A program made the position numbers and the translations under genes. From Candidatus Pelagibacter ubique HTCC1062 (lineage in GTDB: Bacteria; Pseudomonadota; Alphaproteobacteria; Pelagibacterales; Pelagibacteraceae), in the NCBI RefSeq assembly GCF_000012345.1, contig NC_007205.1:750001-782000 (forward strand): a stretch of 32,000 bases of DNA, read 5' to 3'. The notes beneath the pieces are model-generated. The model saw only the letters and a list, made by a program, of their open reading frames with translations, made no database searches and was not told the origin of the DNA. Of this stretch, positions 12,333-17,475 are shown piece by piece. How positions within the stretch are numbered: position 1 is the first letter of the stretch; each line of letters opens with the position of its first letter.

Positions 12333-12677
12333 ATGAATTTCAAATTTGTTTATAAAATATGTACCAAATCTGAATGGCATGAAATTAAGAGCAAAGGTCA
12401 ATTAACAGGTTCTAAAAAAGATTTGGAAGATGGCTATATTCATTTTTCAGGTGATGATCAAGTTGCCGGAACTCTTAAAAAATTTTACCAAAACCAAAAA
12501 GATTTAATTTTATTAAAGGTAGATACTTTAAAACTAGATCATTTAGTTTGGGAACAAGCATCAGATGGAAATATGTTTCCACATTTATATTCACCACTAG
12601 ATATTTCTAATGTAGTAAATGAATTTGATATTACTTTAGATGATGAAGGCAATCATGTGTTGCCGGATATTTTTTGA
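12333..12677 (+). CDS. DUF952-family protein
   Basis: 114 aa with the DUF952 pattern: YKI....W......G......D...GYIHFS...Q...T..KF......L.LLK.D...L.....WE....G..FPHLY..L....V. Confidence 0.8.
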   Translation: MNFKFVYKICTKSEWHEIKSKGQLTGSKKDLEDGYIHFSGDDQVAGTLKKFYQNQKDLILLKVDTLKLDHLVWEQASDGNMFPHLYSPLDISNVVNEFDITLDDEGNHVLPDIF

Positions 12678-12744
12678 CCGCTTTTTTTTAAGGGGGTCAC
12701 CCTTTCGGTAAACTCCAAAAGAGTTCCCCTATAAGTCAGCGGTT
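12676..12744. other. GC-rich multi-stem structured element (candidate RNA structure; strand unresolved)
   Basis: Nested complementarity read by eye. GACCGCT (12676-82) pairs with AGCGGTT (12738-44), and GGGG (12693-96) with CCCC (12726-29). Two small hairpins lie inside: ACC/GGT at 12699-12709 and AACTC/GAGTT at 12711-12725. On the minus strand the first inner loop reads as a GAAA tetraloop. Confidence 0.3.
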
Positions 12745-12750
12745 TACGCT

Positions 12751-12779
12751 AAAATCTATAATAATAGATTTTTTATTTT
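12751..12779 (+). terminator. AT-rich hairpin plus T-tract (possible terminator of the DUF952 transcript)
   Basis: AAAATCTAT (12751-59) pairs with ATAGATTTT (12764-72) around the loop AATA, followed by TTATTTT. The stem is all A/T apart from one G-C pair, so it is weak. Confidence 0.35.
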
Positions 12780-13012
12780 CTATGGTCTTATCTAGTCTTT
12801 GATTATTTAATCACACCAGTTATGTGTCAGGTGGTGATAAATTCATAATCATCCTCCTTTATTGATATTCATATATTAGCATTTTTGAATACTCTATTCA
12901 AAATATTTATTTCACTTTATGTTAAATATATTTATTGAATGCAACCTAGCAAAACTGTAGGGTTTCGATAATTTTAGAAACTCTTCTAACTAATTTTATT
13001 TAAATAATTTTA

Positions 13013-13345
13013 TTAATTATTACCTAAAAGATTTACCATTAGTACACCCACAATAATAAAACATAAACCAACTATCGAATAAAGATTTGGAACTTGATTA
13101 TATTTGATTATGCCAACACCTACAGTTGAGATAATCGCAAGACCCGCAAATGATGCGTAAGTAATTCCCATTGGAATATTTTTCATCACCATTGATAAGG
13201 CATACATGCACAAAACTATAGTAATTGCCGTAATAATACTTGGAACAAGTAGAGTAAAACCTTCGGCGCTTTTTGCAAAACTATTTGAAGCAACACCTAG
13301 TACTACTGCTAAAGCTAGAAATAAGTAGGAAGTTGTCATATTCAT
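13013..13345 (-). CDS. SMR-like (small multidrug resistance fold) 4-TM membrane protein, subunit 2 of a pair; lacks the canonical TM1 glutamate
   Basis: 110 aa with four hydrophobic segments. It matches EmrE in register for L12-A13-x14-V15-x16-G17, KxxEGF, P.G..YA and a C-terminal ..G(V/I)L..N. Position 14 is Val. The start overlaps the upstream stop (TAATG). Confidence 0.8.
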   Translation of the reverse strand: MNMTTSYLFLALAVVLGVASNSFAKSAEGFTLLVPSIITAITIVLCMYALSMVMKNIPMGITYASFAGLAIISTVGVGIIKYNQVPNLYSIVGLCFIIVGVLMVNLLGNN

Positions 13346-13680
13346 TAATTAGTTTTTCCCATTGTATTTAATAATATAACACCAATAATAATTAAAGATA
13401 TTCCAAGAACAGCATAAAGGTTTGGTGTTTGATTGTATTTTACAACACCAAAGATTGTTACAGCTGTAATAGTGAGCCCCCCGTAAGTAGCGTAAGTAAA
13501 GCCAACGGGTATAATGGTCATTGCTTTAGATAAACAAAAGATACATGCAACAATTGTAATAATGCAAAAAATAGTAGGATAAATATTTGTAAAGCCATCT
13601 GTAGCTTTTAAGAAACCATTGGATGAAATACCAAGTATTATTGCTAATACTAGAAATATGTAGCCGCCAGTAAGATTCAT
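13345..13680 (-). CDS. SMR-like 4-TM membrane protein, subunit 1 of a pair; lacks the canonical TM1 glutamate
   Basis: 111 aa, paralogous to the downstream ORF, with the same SMR architecture. Position 14 is Ile. Confidence 0.8.
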   Translation of the reverse strand: MNLTGGYIFLVLAIILGISSNGFLKATDGFTNIYPTIFCIITIVACIFCLSKAMTIIPVGFTYATYGGLTITAVTIFGVVKYNQTPNLYAVLGISLIIIGVILLNTMGKTN

Positions 13681-13729
13681 CTAATTATCTTAAATGAAAT
13701 ATTGTTAGAGATATATAATTATTTAGATA

Positions 13730-13939
13730 TTACCACCAACCCATTACACGGCCGTTACCAGCAATAATTAATAGGCAAGTTAATACATGAAGTGCTATCC
13801 AAAATGTTCTAAAAGCTAATGCTTTTTTAACATCGTTTTGTTTTATAGGTAAAAATTCAGGTTTGTCTTTGTCATTAATACCTATGGGCATCCCAACTGT
13901 TCTTGCCCAAATTTTTAACCAACGTCTTTGACCAGTCAT
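13730..13939 (-). CDS. Hypothetical small membrane protein (69 aa, one C-terminal TM)
   Basis: ATG start 15 nt after the cysK stop and 49 nt before the SMR pair, on the same strand. It has a basic Trp-rich N-terminus and a TM segment FWIALHVLTCLLIIAG. I recognise no family, so coding status rests on operon position and ORF integrity. Confidence 0.45.
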   Translation of the reverse strand: MTGQRRWLKIWARTVGMPIGINDKDKPEFLPIKQNDVKKALAFRTFWIALHVLTCLLIIAGNGRVMGWW

Positions 13940-13954
13940 AATTTTTATCTAAAT

Positions 13955-14959
13955 TTAATCAATCCAATTGGGAAAAGGCAACCCTTTTTCCTCAAGAAAA
14001 GATTTGTTAAACATTTTGGTAGCGTATTTATCACTTTTATCACAAAGAATTGTTACAATAGTTTTTCCAGGACCCAACTCTTTACCCATTCTAATCGCAC
14101 CAGCAATATTAATTCCACAGCTAGTACCAAGGCTTAAGCCTTCATTTTCAATTAAATCATAAAGTATAGGAAGCGCTTCATGGTCATCAATAGAGTAGGC
14201 GTCATCTATCTTAGCATTTTCAAAGTTTTTTGTTACTCTACTTGATCCAATTCCTTCAGTAATTGAACCACCTTCAGATTTTAATTCTCCATTTTTTATA
14301 TAATTGTAAAGAGCAGATCCTTTTGGATCAGATAGAAATATTTTTATATCTTTATTTTTTTCTTTAAGAGCGTTACTTACTCCTGAAATCGTTCCACCTG
14401 TTCCAGATGAACATACAAAACCATCAACTTTACCTTCAGTTTGATCCCAAATTTCTTGTCCTGTTCCTTCATAATGACCCTTAGCATTTGCAACATTGTC
14501 AAACTGATTAGCCCAAACAACACCGTTATTATTTGATGGTCTTAATTCATCAGCAAGTTTTGCTGCAACTTTTACAAAGTTTGCATCATCTTTATAAGGT
14601 TTAGCTGGAACTAGTCTTAAATCAGCACCAATATTTCTAAGAAGATCTTTTTTTTCTTGTGTTTGGTTATCATTCATTACTATGATTGTTTTATAACCAA
14701 GTGAATTACCAAGTAGACATAAGCCAATACCAGTATTACCAGCAGTACCTTCAACAATTGTTCCACCTTTAGAAATTAATTTTTTGGTCTCTGCATCTTT
14801 AATTAAAGCAAGTGCCGCTCTATCTTTTACAGAGCCACCAGGGTTCATAAATTCAGCTTTACCATAAATATTACAACCAGTTATTTCTGATGCAGCTCTA
14901 AGTTTGATTAAAGGAGTGTTACCAATTCCAGAAATAAAATTGTCTTGAATATTTTTCAT
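13955..14959 (-). CDS. cysK: PLP-dependent cysteine synthase-family enzyme (O-acetylserine sulfhydrylase / CBS-like)
   Basis: 334 aa. Motifs: GNTPLI, the NPGGSVKDR PLP-lysine motif, EGTAGNTGIGL and SSGTGGTISG. It is translationally coupled to cysE (TAATG). Confidence 0.85.
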   Translation of the reverse strand: MKNIQDNFISGIGNTPLIKLRAASEITGCNIYGKAEFMNPGGSVKDRAALALIKDAETKKLISKGGTIVEGTAGNTGIGLCLLGNSLGYKTIIVMNDNQTQEKKDLLRNIGADLRLVPAKPYKDDANFVKVAAKLADELRPSNNNGVVWANQFDNVANAKGHYEGTGQEIWDQTEGKVDGFVCSSGTGGTISGVSNALKEKNKDIKIFLSDPKGSALYNYIKNGELKSEGGSITEGIGSSRVTKNFENAKIDDAYSIDDHEALPILYDLIENEGLSLGTSCGINIAGAIRMGKELGPGKTIVTILCDKSDKYATKMFNKSFLEEKGLPFPNWID

Positions 14960-15537
14960 TAGTTTGAAGTATCTTTATCTACCTCTTCTACCGCATAAGG
15001 TTTAAATTCTTCAGTTGCTGTACCAACATTTTTAGCGGGTATTCCAACCATTACTGCATTCTCAGGAACATCTTTAGTTACAACGGCGTTAGCTCCAATT
15101 TTAGCATGAGTGCCAATTATTACAGGGCCTAATATTTGTGCACCAGAACCAACTACAACACAATCACCTAATGTAGGGTGTCTTTTAACTTGTCTTTGGT
15201 CATTTGAATTAATACTTGGCGCAATCCCACCTAAAGTTGCCATATGATAAATGGTTACGTTATTTCCAATTGCTGAAGTTTCACCAATTACAACACCCAT
15301 ACCATGGTCAATAAATAAATTTTTTCCAATTTTAGCACCTGGGTGAATTTCTATTCCAGTTAAAAACCTAGAGAGTTGAGAAATCATTCTTGCAACCAAA
15401 TAAAATTTGGCTAGTTGAAAAAAATTTGCAATTCTGTGAAAAAAAACTGCTTTAACGCCTGGGTAAGTTAAAATTAAACTTAGTTTAGATTTTGCCGCAG
15501 GATCTCTATCAATTATAGATTGTAAAAAGTCGTTCAT
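14959..15537 (-). CDS. cysE: Serine O-acetyltransferase
   Basis: Motifs: [24 protein letters not shown]...[23 protein letters not shown] and hexapeptide repeats. Confidence 0.9.
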
Positions 15538-15611
15538 TATTTGCTAATGTTGATTATAAATTTATAGTGGTTTATATAAGCTTTAAATAAGTAATTTAAA
15601 GAGGAAAATCT

Positions 15612-16022
15612 ATGTACAAAAACACCAACTGTTTTCATTTAGCAATACCTTGTGGCGATTTAGAGAAAGCAAAACATTTTTACAGTGAAATATTAGGGTG
15701 CAGATTAGATAACTCAGCTCAAGAATGGGCAGATGTAGATTTTTGGGGAAATGAATTAACTCTTCACGCAAGCGAGCATAAACTTGAAAGCGAAAGACAT
15801 GATGTTGATATGGGTAACGTTTCTGTTCCTCATTTCGGTGTACATTTATCTAGAGAAAATTTTGATGCTCTTAAAAGTAGACTAAGAGAAAAAAATACTA
15901 AATATTATGACGAACCTTATTTAAGATTTAAAGGAACAAAATATGAGCAAGAAACATTCTTTGTTAAAGATCCTAATGAAAATATTTTAGAGATCAAAAC
16001 ATTAACTGCAAATCCTGGCTAA
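15612..16022 (+). CDS. VOC-family (glyoxalase/bleomycin-resistance/dioxygenase fold) protein
   Basis: 136 aa. FHLAIPCGDLEKAKHFYSEILGC is the typical beta-alpha-beta-beta-beta N-terminal module, and there is a C-terminal F.VKDPNENILEIK. AAAGAGGA sits 7 nt before the ATG. Confidence 0.7.
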   Translation: MYKNTNCFHLAIPCGDLEKAKHFYSEILGCRLDNSAQEWADVDFWGNELTLHASEHKLESERHDVDMGNVSVPHFGVHLSRENFDALKSRLREKNTKYYDEPYLRFKGTKYEQETFFVKDPNENILEIKTLTANPG

Positions 16023-16599: not shown

Positions 16600-17475
16600 A
16601 TGAAATTTATAAAAATATTTTTAACATCACTCTGTTTAATAATCACAACTGTAGCTAATGCAGATGTAGCCTCTCAAGCTTTAAATAAAGTATCTGAAAA
16701 AATATCAAATTTAATCCCAGGTGAAGGAATTACTGAAGTATCTTTAGATTATAATGATGGTGATGAGGATCAGCTTAACTTCTCAATATTAGGGGTAAGA
16801 GATATTGAAACAACAGATAACTCTAATTTTTTTACTCAATTTAGTTTGATGAACCAGGAAATAAACAGTTCCGGAAGAATTATTGGAAACATAGGCTTAG
16901 GTTATAGAAAACTATCTGAAGATAAAAATTTTATGTTTGGCGCAAATACTTTCTACGATAGAGATTTAACAGAGGGTCAAGACAGATTAGGCCTTGGTAT
17001 TGAAGCTAAAGGTTCAATTTTAGATTTAACTGCAAATAGCTATACAAAAATTTCAAACTCTGAAGTTGTTAATGGTGATAGAGAGCAAGTTTTATCTGGT
17101 TGGGATTTTAACTTAACATCTCAAATTCCAAGAGCACCATGGGCTAGAATTAATTATAATGGTTATAAATGGGAAACTGAAAAAGGATCTGCTGATCAAA
17201 AAGGTAATATTTATTCTCTAGAACTAGATGTAACAAACTCAGTAGAAGTTGTTGCAAGTTTAGACAAATCCTCACTAAATGGTGTGGATGATGAAACTTC
17301 TTTAAGTATTAATTATATTTATCCACCAAAAGAAAAATCTATGGTGATGTCTGACGGTTTATCAAATGACATGTTTGAAAAAAGTAACATGGAACAAAAA
17401 TTAAAAGAAAAAGTTAGAAGAAGAAATAAACTAGTAATGGAAATTCAGGGAGCAGTCGTCATGACTAAAAAATAA
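16600..17475 (+). CDS. Inverse-autotransporter (intimin/invasin-type) beta-barrel domain protein without passenger domain
   Basis: Signal peptide MKFIKIFLTSLCLIITTVANA|DV. Its motif order matches the intimin beta-domain as I recall it: FFTQFSL, GNIGLGYR, GANTFYDRDL, RLGLGIEAKG..LDLTANSY, GWDFNLTSQIP..PWARINYNGYKWE, and a terminal RRRNKLVMEIQG linker-like segment. The ORF ends 7 residues later. Confidence 0.7.
   Translation: MKFIKIFLTSLCLIITTVANADVASQALNKVSEKISNLIPGEGITEVSLDYNDGDEDQLNFSILGVRDIETTDNSNFFTQFSLMNQEINSSGRIIGNIGLGYRKLSEDKNFMFGANTFYDRDLTEGQDRLGLGIEAKGSILDLTANSYTKISNSEVVNGDREQVLSGWDFNLTSQIPRAPWARINYNGYKWETEKGSADQKGNIYSLELDVTNSVEVVASLDKSSLNGVDDETSLSINYIYPPKEKSMVMSDGLSNDMFEKSNMEQKLKEKVRRRNKLVMEIQGAVVMTKK

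Follow-up and report, generated by a model that had tools for sequence, protein, structure and literature searches.

A gene pair of Candidatus Pelagibacter ubique HTCC1062 belongs to a conserved clade of small multidrug resistance-fold proteins with glycine instead of the central glutamate

Small multidrug resistance (SMR) proteins, of the DMT superfamily, are textbook minimal secondary transporters, whose mechanism is built on one membrane-embedded glutamate per subunit (Glu14 in E. coli EmrE, Glu13 in Gdx) that binds both protons and substrate. These glutamates are essential (PMC9574504). The loss of this residue has precedents. In the lipid SMRs of the ArnE/ArnF type the central Glu is often absent, with Asn instead, and these proteins may be uncoupled (PMC9574504), and YvaD of the Bacillus YvaD/YvaE pair has lost E14, is poorly conserved and was judged to be under weak selection (Bay & Turner 2009, PMC2716321). 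With regard to topology, SMR genes that occur as genetic singletons encode proteins with a Lys/Arg bias centred on 0, i.e. dual-topology proteins, and among adjacent SMR pairs over 95% show Lys/Arg biases of opposite sign, near +4 and -4 (PMC9574504). Here we describe a pair of overlapping SMR genes, SMR-A and SMR-B, in a stretch of 32,000 nt of Candidatus Pelagibacter ubique HTCC1062 (contig NC_007205.1, positions 750,001 to 782,000; 31% GC), hereafter the window, in which both products have Gly at the position of Glu14. All coordinates are positions in the window; the genes and the decisive codons are the following.

13345-13680, minus strand: SMR-A gene, 111 aa, A subtype of the SMR clade with central Gly; the TAA stop (13345-13347) is counted in
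13013-13345, minus strand: SMR-B gene, 110 aa, B subtype of the same central-Gly clade, 47% identical to A
13343-13347, minus strand: TAATG junction, in which the stop of A and the start of B share one base, by direct reading of the sequence
13630-13632, minus strand: GGT codon of Gly17 of A, equivalent of EmrE Glu14, by phmmer, MAFFT and hhalign alignments
13295-13297, minus strand: GGT codon of Gly17 of B, equivalent of EmrE Glu14, by phmmer and MAFFT alignments; G in 99 of the 99 B-type sequences with the column aligned

The junction reads ...ACT AAT TAATG AAT ATG..., the final A of the TAA of A being the first base of the ATG of B, and is identical in the loci L018, L028, L112 and L129, which have the order A>B (A followed by B). 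A preliminary description, made by a model from the letters of this DNA, had presented the genes as a translationally coupled pair whose products have a single acidic residue each and no membrane carboxylate, and the overlap, the single acidic residues and the lack of a membrane carboxylate are borne out: both open reading frames (ORFs) and the overlap were read directly, the only acidic residues are D28 in A and E28 in B, within the loop-1 motif K25-x-x-(D/E)28-G-F, and none is found in any helix of either subunit. A profile alignment likewise placed no acidic residue in the first transmembrane helix (TM1). Both proteins also lack His and Arg entirely. The number of sites found by a promoter and terminator scan was not above that of shuffled sequence, and the scan left the transcription unit undefined.

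A and B are clearly SMR-fold proteins. Both hit Pfam PF00893, covering positions 2-93 of the 93 in the model (64.2 bits for A and 57.5 bits for B, against a gathering score of 23.7), and phmmer against the PDB sequences aligns A with EmrE residues 3-106 (E 5.6e-12) and B with residues 3-105 (E 3.9e-11), both ungapped and with 28-30% identity over about 104 residues. When the profile of the clade was compared with EmrE by hhalign, the match covered the full length with a probability of 98.4% and E 5e-15, and G17 stood opposite E14. The AlphaFold2 (AF2) model of the A monomer (predicted local distance difference test score 90.4) has helices at 3-22, 33-56, 59-81 and 88-107. Its best PDB matches by Foldseek are EmrE (8uoz_A, TM-score 0.78) and Gdx-Clo (6wk5_A, TM-score 0.79), and the top 13 are all one or the other, with TM-scores of 0.60-0.79. 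The family scores, the ungapped alignment and the model of A thus agree on the fold that had been claimed for the pair.

The position of the missing glutamate, however, had to be reassigned. The preliminary description took both N-termini to be in exact register with EmrE, placing V14 and I14 of the two proteins at Glu14. By contrast, phmmer, hhalign and MAFFT agree on a gapless register in which residue n of the query is EmrE residue n-3 (for example, 6 is 3); V14 and I14 are then the equivalents of EmrE I11, and the equivalent of Glu14 is Gly17 in both A and B. The offset of three was already implied by the K..(E/D)GF landmark of the same description, since K25-x-x-D/E28-G-F of the pair corresponds to K22-x-x-E25-G-F of EmrE. 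The replacement of W63 by Phe or Tyr stands, with Tyr66 of A and Phe66 of B at its place. In EmrE the 'fulcrum' reads G65-V-G67, against G68-L-T70 in A and G68-L-A70 in B. As to the polar stretch that had been proposed for TM1, it reads S19-S20-N21-G22-F23 in A and A19-S20-N21-S22-F23 in B, and only N21, which aligns with EmrE T18, is conserved in the clade.

The central Gly extends far beyond the window. With B as the query, 1360 matches were returned from 1.8 billion cluster representatives; of the best 150, 62 have G in the central column and 56 have E. When a profile was built from those Gly-type proteins that are most distant, it retrieved 992 proteins, with Gly in all matches listed. We then aligned 512 distinct family members, taken from the protein searches and 190 fetched loci, together with EmrE to one hidden Markov model. 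Of these 513 sequences, 455 have G in the central column and 41 have E; one has K, and 16 have a gap there. The central Gly is kept in 455 of 455 clade members, and it is not a matter of chance. At least four SAR11 subtypes can be distinguished, namely A (n = 232), K (n = 73), C (n = 33; like protein P0156) and B (n = 99), of which K is the 'core' copy, with a 4-nt overlap with the end of a gene of the short-chain dehydrogenase/reductase (SDR)/epimerase family and ugpBAEC downstream. Relative to the closest Glu-containing homologues, the loss of Glu is accompanied throughout the clade by further, coordinated replacements at canonical SMR positions, given here in EmrE numbering.

E14 to G: 100% of the clade
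T18 to N: 99-100%
W63 to Y (A, K and C) or F (B): 100%
G67 to T (A, K and C) or T/A/C (B): 100% T in A, K and C
P86 to Y: 91-100%
Y40 to I or M: 97-100%
S43 to C (A, K and B) or T (C): 100%

Three other residues, Y60 of the Tyr switch (Y63 in the pair), G90 (G93) and G97 (G100), are kept in 97-100% of the sequences in all subtypes, and loop-1 Lys22, the G90-x6-G97 dimerisation motif of TM4 and N102 (EmrE numbering) are kept as well; G65 (G68) is kept in A and B and is Ala in the core K subtype. Altogether, about 30 positions are 97-100% conserved over hundreds of sequences, the replaced pocket residues included. The acidic residue of loop 1 is dispensable: position 28 varies among N, Q, D and E and is Asn in 72% of the A-type proteins, and 157 of the 232 A-type proteins have no acidic residue anywhere. 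B differs from A in the pocket by the fixed residues F66, A67, S65 and T39.

In a neighbour-joining tree, which is approximate and has bootstrap values of 0-38 inside the Gly clade, the clade itself has a bootstrap of 88/100, its sister group consists of E-type proteins of low-GC marine contigs, and B lies near the clade base. Monophyly of the clade together with the position of B implies a single loss of Glu that preceded the A/B duplication. The two genes are ancient paralogues, and the Glu-less state is an inherited trait of the clade rather than a property of this pair. The ratio of nonsynonymous to synonymous substitution rates (dN/dS), measured against four orthologous loci, is 0.04-0.13 for A and 0.03-0.11 for B, and both genes are under strong purifying selection. 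The named close homologues are from Pelagibacteraceae or Ca. Pelagibacter, the best 80 loci of a genome scan with A-type patterns are all Pelagibacteraceae/SAR11, and the cultured strain HIMB058 has the core copy. In the databases, clade members bear no more specific label than 'SMR family transporter' or 'small multidrug resistance pump'. In the full-text literature we found no description of a central-Gly clade, of the E14G/T18N/W63Y/G67T switch, of the SAR11 expansion or of Glu-less SAR11 SMRs, and a paper on sulfur limitation in SAR11 does not mention these genes; the branch is therefore apparently a large and undescribed one.

We also examined whether A and B form a unit. The Lys/Arg bias is 0 for window A and +1 for window B, and family-wide it is 0 in 215 of 232 A-type proteins, +1 or 0 in 93 of 99 B-type proteins, -1 or 0 in K and 0 in C; unbiased Lys/Arg in both subtypes of the pair would fit dual topology. 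Two surveys of 80 loci each were seeded with subtype-specific patterns, so that the frequencies are not population estimates. The 80 species-representative genome loci comprise one A>B and 16 B>A arrangements, nine with A alone at the slot between cysK and DUF952, and 54 K-type singletons (50 confirmed in the SDR-ugpB context). The 80 metagenome loci found with B-specific patterns include five A>B, 23 B>C and 28 with B alone at this slot, with at least 345 nt on both sides. A tblastn search for an A-type gene in the B-alone loci found none, and neither did an hmmsearch for a second SMR ORF in 11 of these loci that were spot-checked. Some A-type singletons, 79-82% identical to window A, directly follow moaA-moaC, in one case (L022) with a 4-nt overlap with moaC and with a non-SMR protein bearing an N-terminal signal-like hydrophobic segment as the next gene; others lie 10 nt downstream of a phnDCE-like ATP-binding cassette (ABC) transporter. 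Since A and B are each found without the other in cis, the distribution speaks against a heterodimer of A and B as an obligate form and in favour of proteins capable of forming homodimers. The claim of a heterodimeric unit is thus not supported, given this distribution and the biases of 0 to +1. Mixed A/B dimers are nevertheless plausible in this lineage, given the conserved TAATG coupling.

Membership in the known SMR subtypes was tested with NCBIfam models, and the best-ranked models for the pair are of the Qac type, at about 80 bits against cut-offs of 160-226. For Qac, the scores are 81.4 bits for QacH (cut-off 205), 80.5 for QacCGHJ (160) and 46-48 for EmrE (226). Gdx/SugE gives 46-49 bits (126), and the polyamine transporter models give 55-57 bits for MdtI (103) and 20-26 for MdtJ (122), the Lys/Arg biases of our pair not being opposite. 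At gathering score an Rfam scan of the window was empty, and in 12600-15700 a threshold relaxed to E up to 10 gave only meaningless weak matches, none of them a guanidine riboswitch. As the Qac, Gdx and MdtIJ cut-offs are missed and there is no guanidine riboswitch, canonical drug/H+ or guanidinium/H+ antiporters are very unlikely, in line with what had been supposed for the pair. Another four-helix family, such as ArnE/ArnF, had been raised as the identity that would overturn the assignment; sequence and profile comparisons were negative, since the NCBIfam ArnE model (PRK15051) gives 13.3 bits, for B only, against a cut-off of 92, and hhalign gives 41.7% over 51 columns for E. coli ArnE and 1.4% for ArnF.

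The reading that we favour, with about an even chance of being right, is that these proteins act as antiparallel-dimer facilitators without carboxylate coupling, built around a neutral, remodelled pocket. Each protein would insert in both orientations and form antiparallel dimers as EmrE does; A and B would each work as a homodimer, with mixed A/B dimers possible and not required. Having no ionisable membrane residue, they could not exchange two H+ for a cation on a shared carboxylate. The pocket replacements are neutral hydrogen-bonding or aromatic residues and nearly invariant, with the Tyr switch and the dimerisation helix left in place. Most likely, the dimers would be uncoupled rocker-switch facilitators or efflux valves that retain alternating access, in which Asn21, Ser20, Tyr63, Tyr/Phe66, Thr/Ala70 and Cys46 would form a neutral hydrogen-bonding and aromatic pocket for an uncharged, zwitterionic or amphipathic small molecule rather than a simple cation. 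Several points weigh against this reading. The mechanism is deduced solely from what the clade lacks. The conserved Cys39, Cys46 and Cys49 and several Tyr residues are titratable in principle, so that a group other than a carboxylate might still provide coupling, and the change of G67 to T or A at the GxG fulcrum might impair alternating access and leave a channel-like or non-transport role. The conservation of TAATG in all A>B loci and the strong constraint on both genes also fit a dedicated heterodimer in this lineage, an A or B gene that stands alone could pair in trans with the core copy beside ugpB, and the neighbours differ among the copies and give no consistent substrate clue.

Among the alternatives, the one with the most in its favour is that of the preliminary description, an obligate antiparallel A/B heterodimer, i.e. 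a classic 'paired SMR' with a still non-canonical mechanism. It would account for the TAATG junction kept in the A>B loci, for the purifying selection on A and B alike, for the fixed differences of the B pocket and for the recurrence of central-Gly tandem pairs (A>B, B>A and B>C, and one on a 63%-GC contig outside SAR11, L193). We nonetheless consider it unlikely, because the Lys/Arg bias is near 0 in both proteins and not near +4 and -4 as in more than 95% of paired SMRs (PMC9574504), because lone A-type genes, the K singletons counted with them, make up at least 63 of the 80 genome loci and B alone 28 of the 80 metagenome loci, and because the partner (A, B or C) and the order vary among genomes, the shared slot holding A>B, B>A or B>C. 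Another alternative, clearly less probable again, is a flippase for lipid-linked sugars or glycolipids like ArnE/ArnF, in which the neutral cavity would let the head group through, with the tail in the membrane portal and without proton coupling. The glycolipids of SAR11 must cross the membrane, and an invariant Asn lies one helical turn from the central Gly. Near the core copy, with its 4-nt overlap with an SDR/epimerase-family gene, the opposite strand holds a kdsD-like gene with SIS and CBS domains and a putative lptB-like ABC ATPase gene. Lipid SMRs, moreover, are often Glu-less, with Asn, and may be uncoupled (PMC9574504). On the other hand, the clade is Qac-like and not Arn-like in its model scores (about 80 bits with QacCGHJ, 13 bits with ArnE for B only) and in the weak hhalign results, its copies are scattered among cysEK, moaAC and phnDCE rather than placed in glycan clusters, and copy number and subtype vary by strain, which is more typical of solute transporters.

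Two further explanations have far less to recommend them. If the pair were ordinary proton-coupled antiporters, the proton would have to be carried by Asp/Glu28 of loop 1, which is aligned with the conserved EmrE E25, or by a cavity Cys or Tyr, such as Cys46, which is 100% conserved in A, K and B at the pocket position of EmrE S43. Yet residue 28 is located in a loop outside the AF2 helices 3-22 and 33-56 and is replaced in most A-type proteins, many of which are devoid of acidic residues as described above, and the C subtype has Thr in place of Cys46; we regard this as very improbable. The notion of decaying or non-functional relics could appeal to the inactivation of EmrE upon loss of E14 and to the weak selection ascribed to the E14-less YvaD (PMC2716321). 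It is effectively refuted by dN/dS values of 0.03-0.13 and by the conservation of about 30 positions, replaced pocket residues among them, and the genes are kept, often in several copies, in a streamlined genome.

As for the substrate of the proposed facilitators, a zwitterionic quaternary-amine or sulfonium metabolite would be a reasonable guess by analogy, prompted by the Glu-type sister genes that lie beside genes like those for betaine-homocysteine methyltransferase (BHMT) and dimethylglycine dehydrogenase, and by the export of betaine and choline reported for EmrE (Bay & Turner 2012, as cited in PMC7240134). The main alternative, suggested by the Glu-less lipid SMRs, would be a lipid-linked substrate. 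We tentatively go one step further, with somewhat less than even confidence, and propose that the clade may represent a fifth functional subtype of SMRs: a proton-independent, dual-topology facilitator with a neutral Asn/Tyr/Thr/Cys pocket for a non-cationic metabolite, present as at least four subtypes that are mixed in a hypervariable slot and apparently spread beyond SAR11. Its cargo could possibly be an osmolyte or amino-acid derivative that is zwitterionic and brings along a carboxylate of its own, or a neutral metalloid or organosulfur species.

The nearest Glu-type relatives of the clade (the P0144/P0387 cluster) are single genes on three marine contigs of 33% GC and are 44-47% identical to B. 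They overlap an unannotated ORF of 142 aa and are adjoined by BHMT-like, dimethylglycine-dehydrogenase-like and TauD genes, which hints at an ancestral link of the clade to quaternary-amine metabolism. Central-Gly homologues outside SAR11 were found on contigs of 63% GC (L193-L195), 59% GC (L003) and 34% GC (L004/L005) and in a further locus, L006. A contig of 63% GC has a tandem central-Gly pair, one of its proteins with a poly-Gln N-terminus, adjoining a Ser/Thr protein kinase gene; single genes occur on ORFan-rich contigs, where very large ORFs, a RING finger, an IQ motif and a papain-like peptidase are found as well. These contigs look like eukaryotic (algal) or giant-virus-like DNA, and the nesting of their homologues within the Gly clade in the neighbour-joining tree suggests horizontal transfer. 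Scans of IMG/VR for viral carriage gave one weak E-type match and none for the P0272 type.

The stretch from cysK to DUF952, which spans 12678-13954 in the window (compare loci L018-L031 and L109-L188), is a hypervariable slot with the layout cysE-cysK-variable cargo-SMR gene(s)-DUF952, the last in the opposite orientation. One or two central-Gly genes (A, B or C subtype) occupy it, in no fixed order, and across SAR11 its cargo includes a 69-aa ORF, a SnoaL_2 protein, DUF2798, other small membrane proteins, MR_MLE, GYD and DUF1330. In the window the 69-aa ORF (13730-13939, minus strand) lies between cysK and SMR-A; it encodes a C-terminal hydrophobic helix and has no match to a Pfam or NCBIfam family. 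It is 90-98% conserved in several related loci (L109-L111, L124, L126, L129, L130, L158, L169 and L187) and is annotated as a 69-aa gene in L020, and other genes take its place in other genomes. An O-acetylserine/cysteine exporter, by analogy with EamA, was considered and set aside, as only the adjacency to cysEK speaks for it and the variable cargo between cysK and the SMR genes loosens that link.

On the other side of the pair, a spacer of 335 nt (12678-13012, minus strand) extends from the stop of SMR-B to the stop of DUF952 and is also present in L018, L028 and L109-L187; it is strongly conserved in about 35 distinct loci, independently of the SMR genes upstream. Its SMR-sense strand shows AAAGGAGG (12860-12853), a strong Shine-Dalgarno sequence, together with a mini-ORF, M(I)MNLSPPDT followed by a stop, that varies synonymously among loci. 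The mini-ORF is followed by two hairpins whose compensatory changes and G.U pairs fit the SMR-sense strand only and, downstream of these, by a GC-rich hairpin of 15 bp (12730-12690). The spacer has no Rfam match and is a candidate for a new small RNA or leader-peptide element. Elsewhere in the window, an ORF of 291 aa (16600-17475, plus strand) matches the inverse-autotransporter beta-domain PF11924 (E 1.7e-33) and consists mostly of the barrel, with no passenger domain.

In the singleton contexts (L008-L012 and L022-L023; L013-L017; L052-L107), A- or K-type genes end unrelated gene strings: moaA-moaC-SMR, phnD-phnC-phnE-like-SMR and SDR-SMR-ugpBAEC. The phnDCE-like string is followed by phoR-pstSCA in L014, and by aquaporin and low-molecular-weight phosphatase genes elsewhere. 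Two of the three contexts are phosphorus-acquisition loci. No common functional theme was found among the neighbours, i.e. cysE-cysK, moaA-moaC, the phnDCE-like genes by pst/phoR and SDR-ugpBAEC.

A conserved Glu-less clade implies that the SMR scaffold carries a different chemistry, presumably one that is not coupled to protons by a carboxylate, and is thus of interest for both the SMR mechanism and the biology of SAR11. The clade is abundant in SAR11, the most abundant marine bacterium, and the SAR11 genome is small, with few dispensable genes; since many strains nevertheless keep several copies, the substrate is probably relevant to the cycling of carbon, sulfur or phosphorus in the ocean. 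The proteins, of about 110 residues, make direct biochemical work feasible.

Compared with the named systems, the pair is similar in build to EmrE and the Qac proteins (PF00893; PDB 3b5d, 7mgx and 8uoz), with which it shares a length of about 110 aa, four TM helices, the ungapped alignment and the unbiased Lys/Arg of dual-topology homodimers, and from which it retains Y60, K22, G26-F27, P32, P55, G57, G65, G90, G97 and N102. It differs in the changes E14 to G, T18 to N, W63 to Y/F and G67 to T/A and in the absence of the C-terminal His, and as it is devoid of an ionisable membrane residue, 2H+/cation antiport with a shared carboxylate is impossible. ArnE/ArnF, the undecaprenyl-phosphate-4-amino-4-deoxy-L-arabinose flippase, is the sole described SMR subtype that commonly lacks the central Glu, as our pair does; it may also be uncoupled and carry a non-cationic substrate, and it is often encoded by an adjacent gene pair. 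Our pair has Gly rather than Asn at the centre, a very weak sequence relation to ArnE/ArnF and no arn-like operon. YvaD is likewise an E14-less SMR homologue adjoining a second SMR gene, but only one partner is Glu-less in YvaD/YvaE, whereas here Glu is missing from both genes and from the clade as a whole, and purifying selection is strong. Finally, EbrAB, YkkCD and MdtIJ resemble the pair in consisting of two adjacent SMR genes that are often translationally coupled, and the NCBIfam models of EbrA, EbrB and MdtI match it at 50-62 bits; those systems combine Lys/Arg biases that are opposite (about +4 and -4) with a central Glu in one partner at least, whereas the SAR11 pair has biases of 0 to +1 and no Glu.

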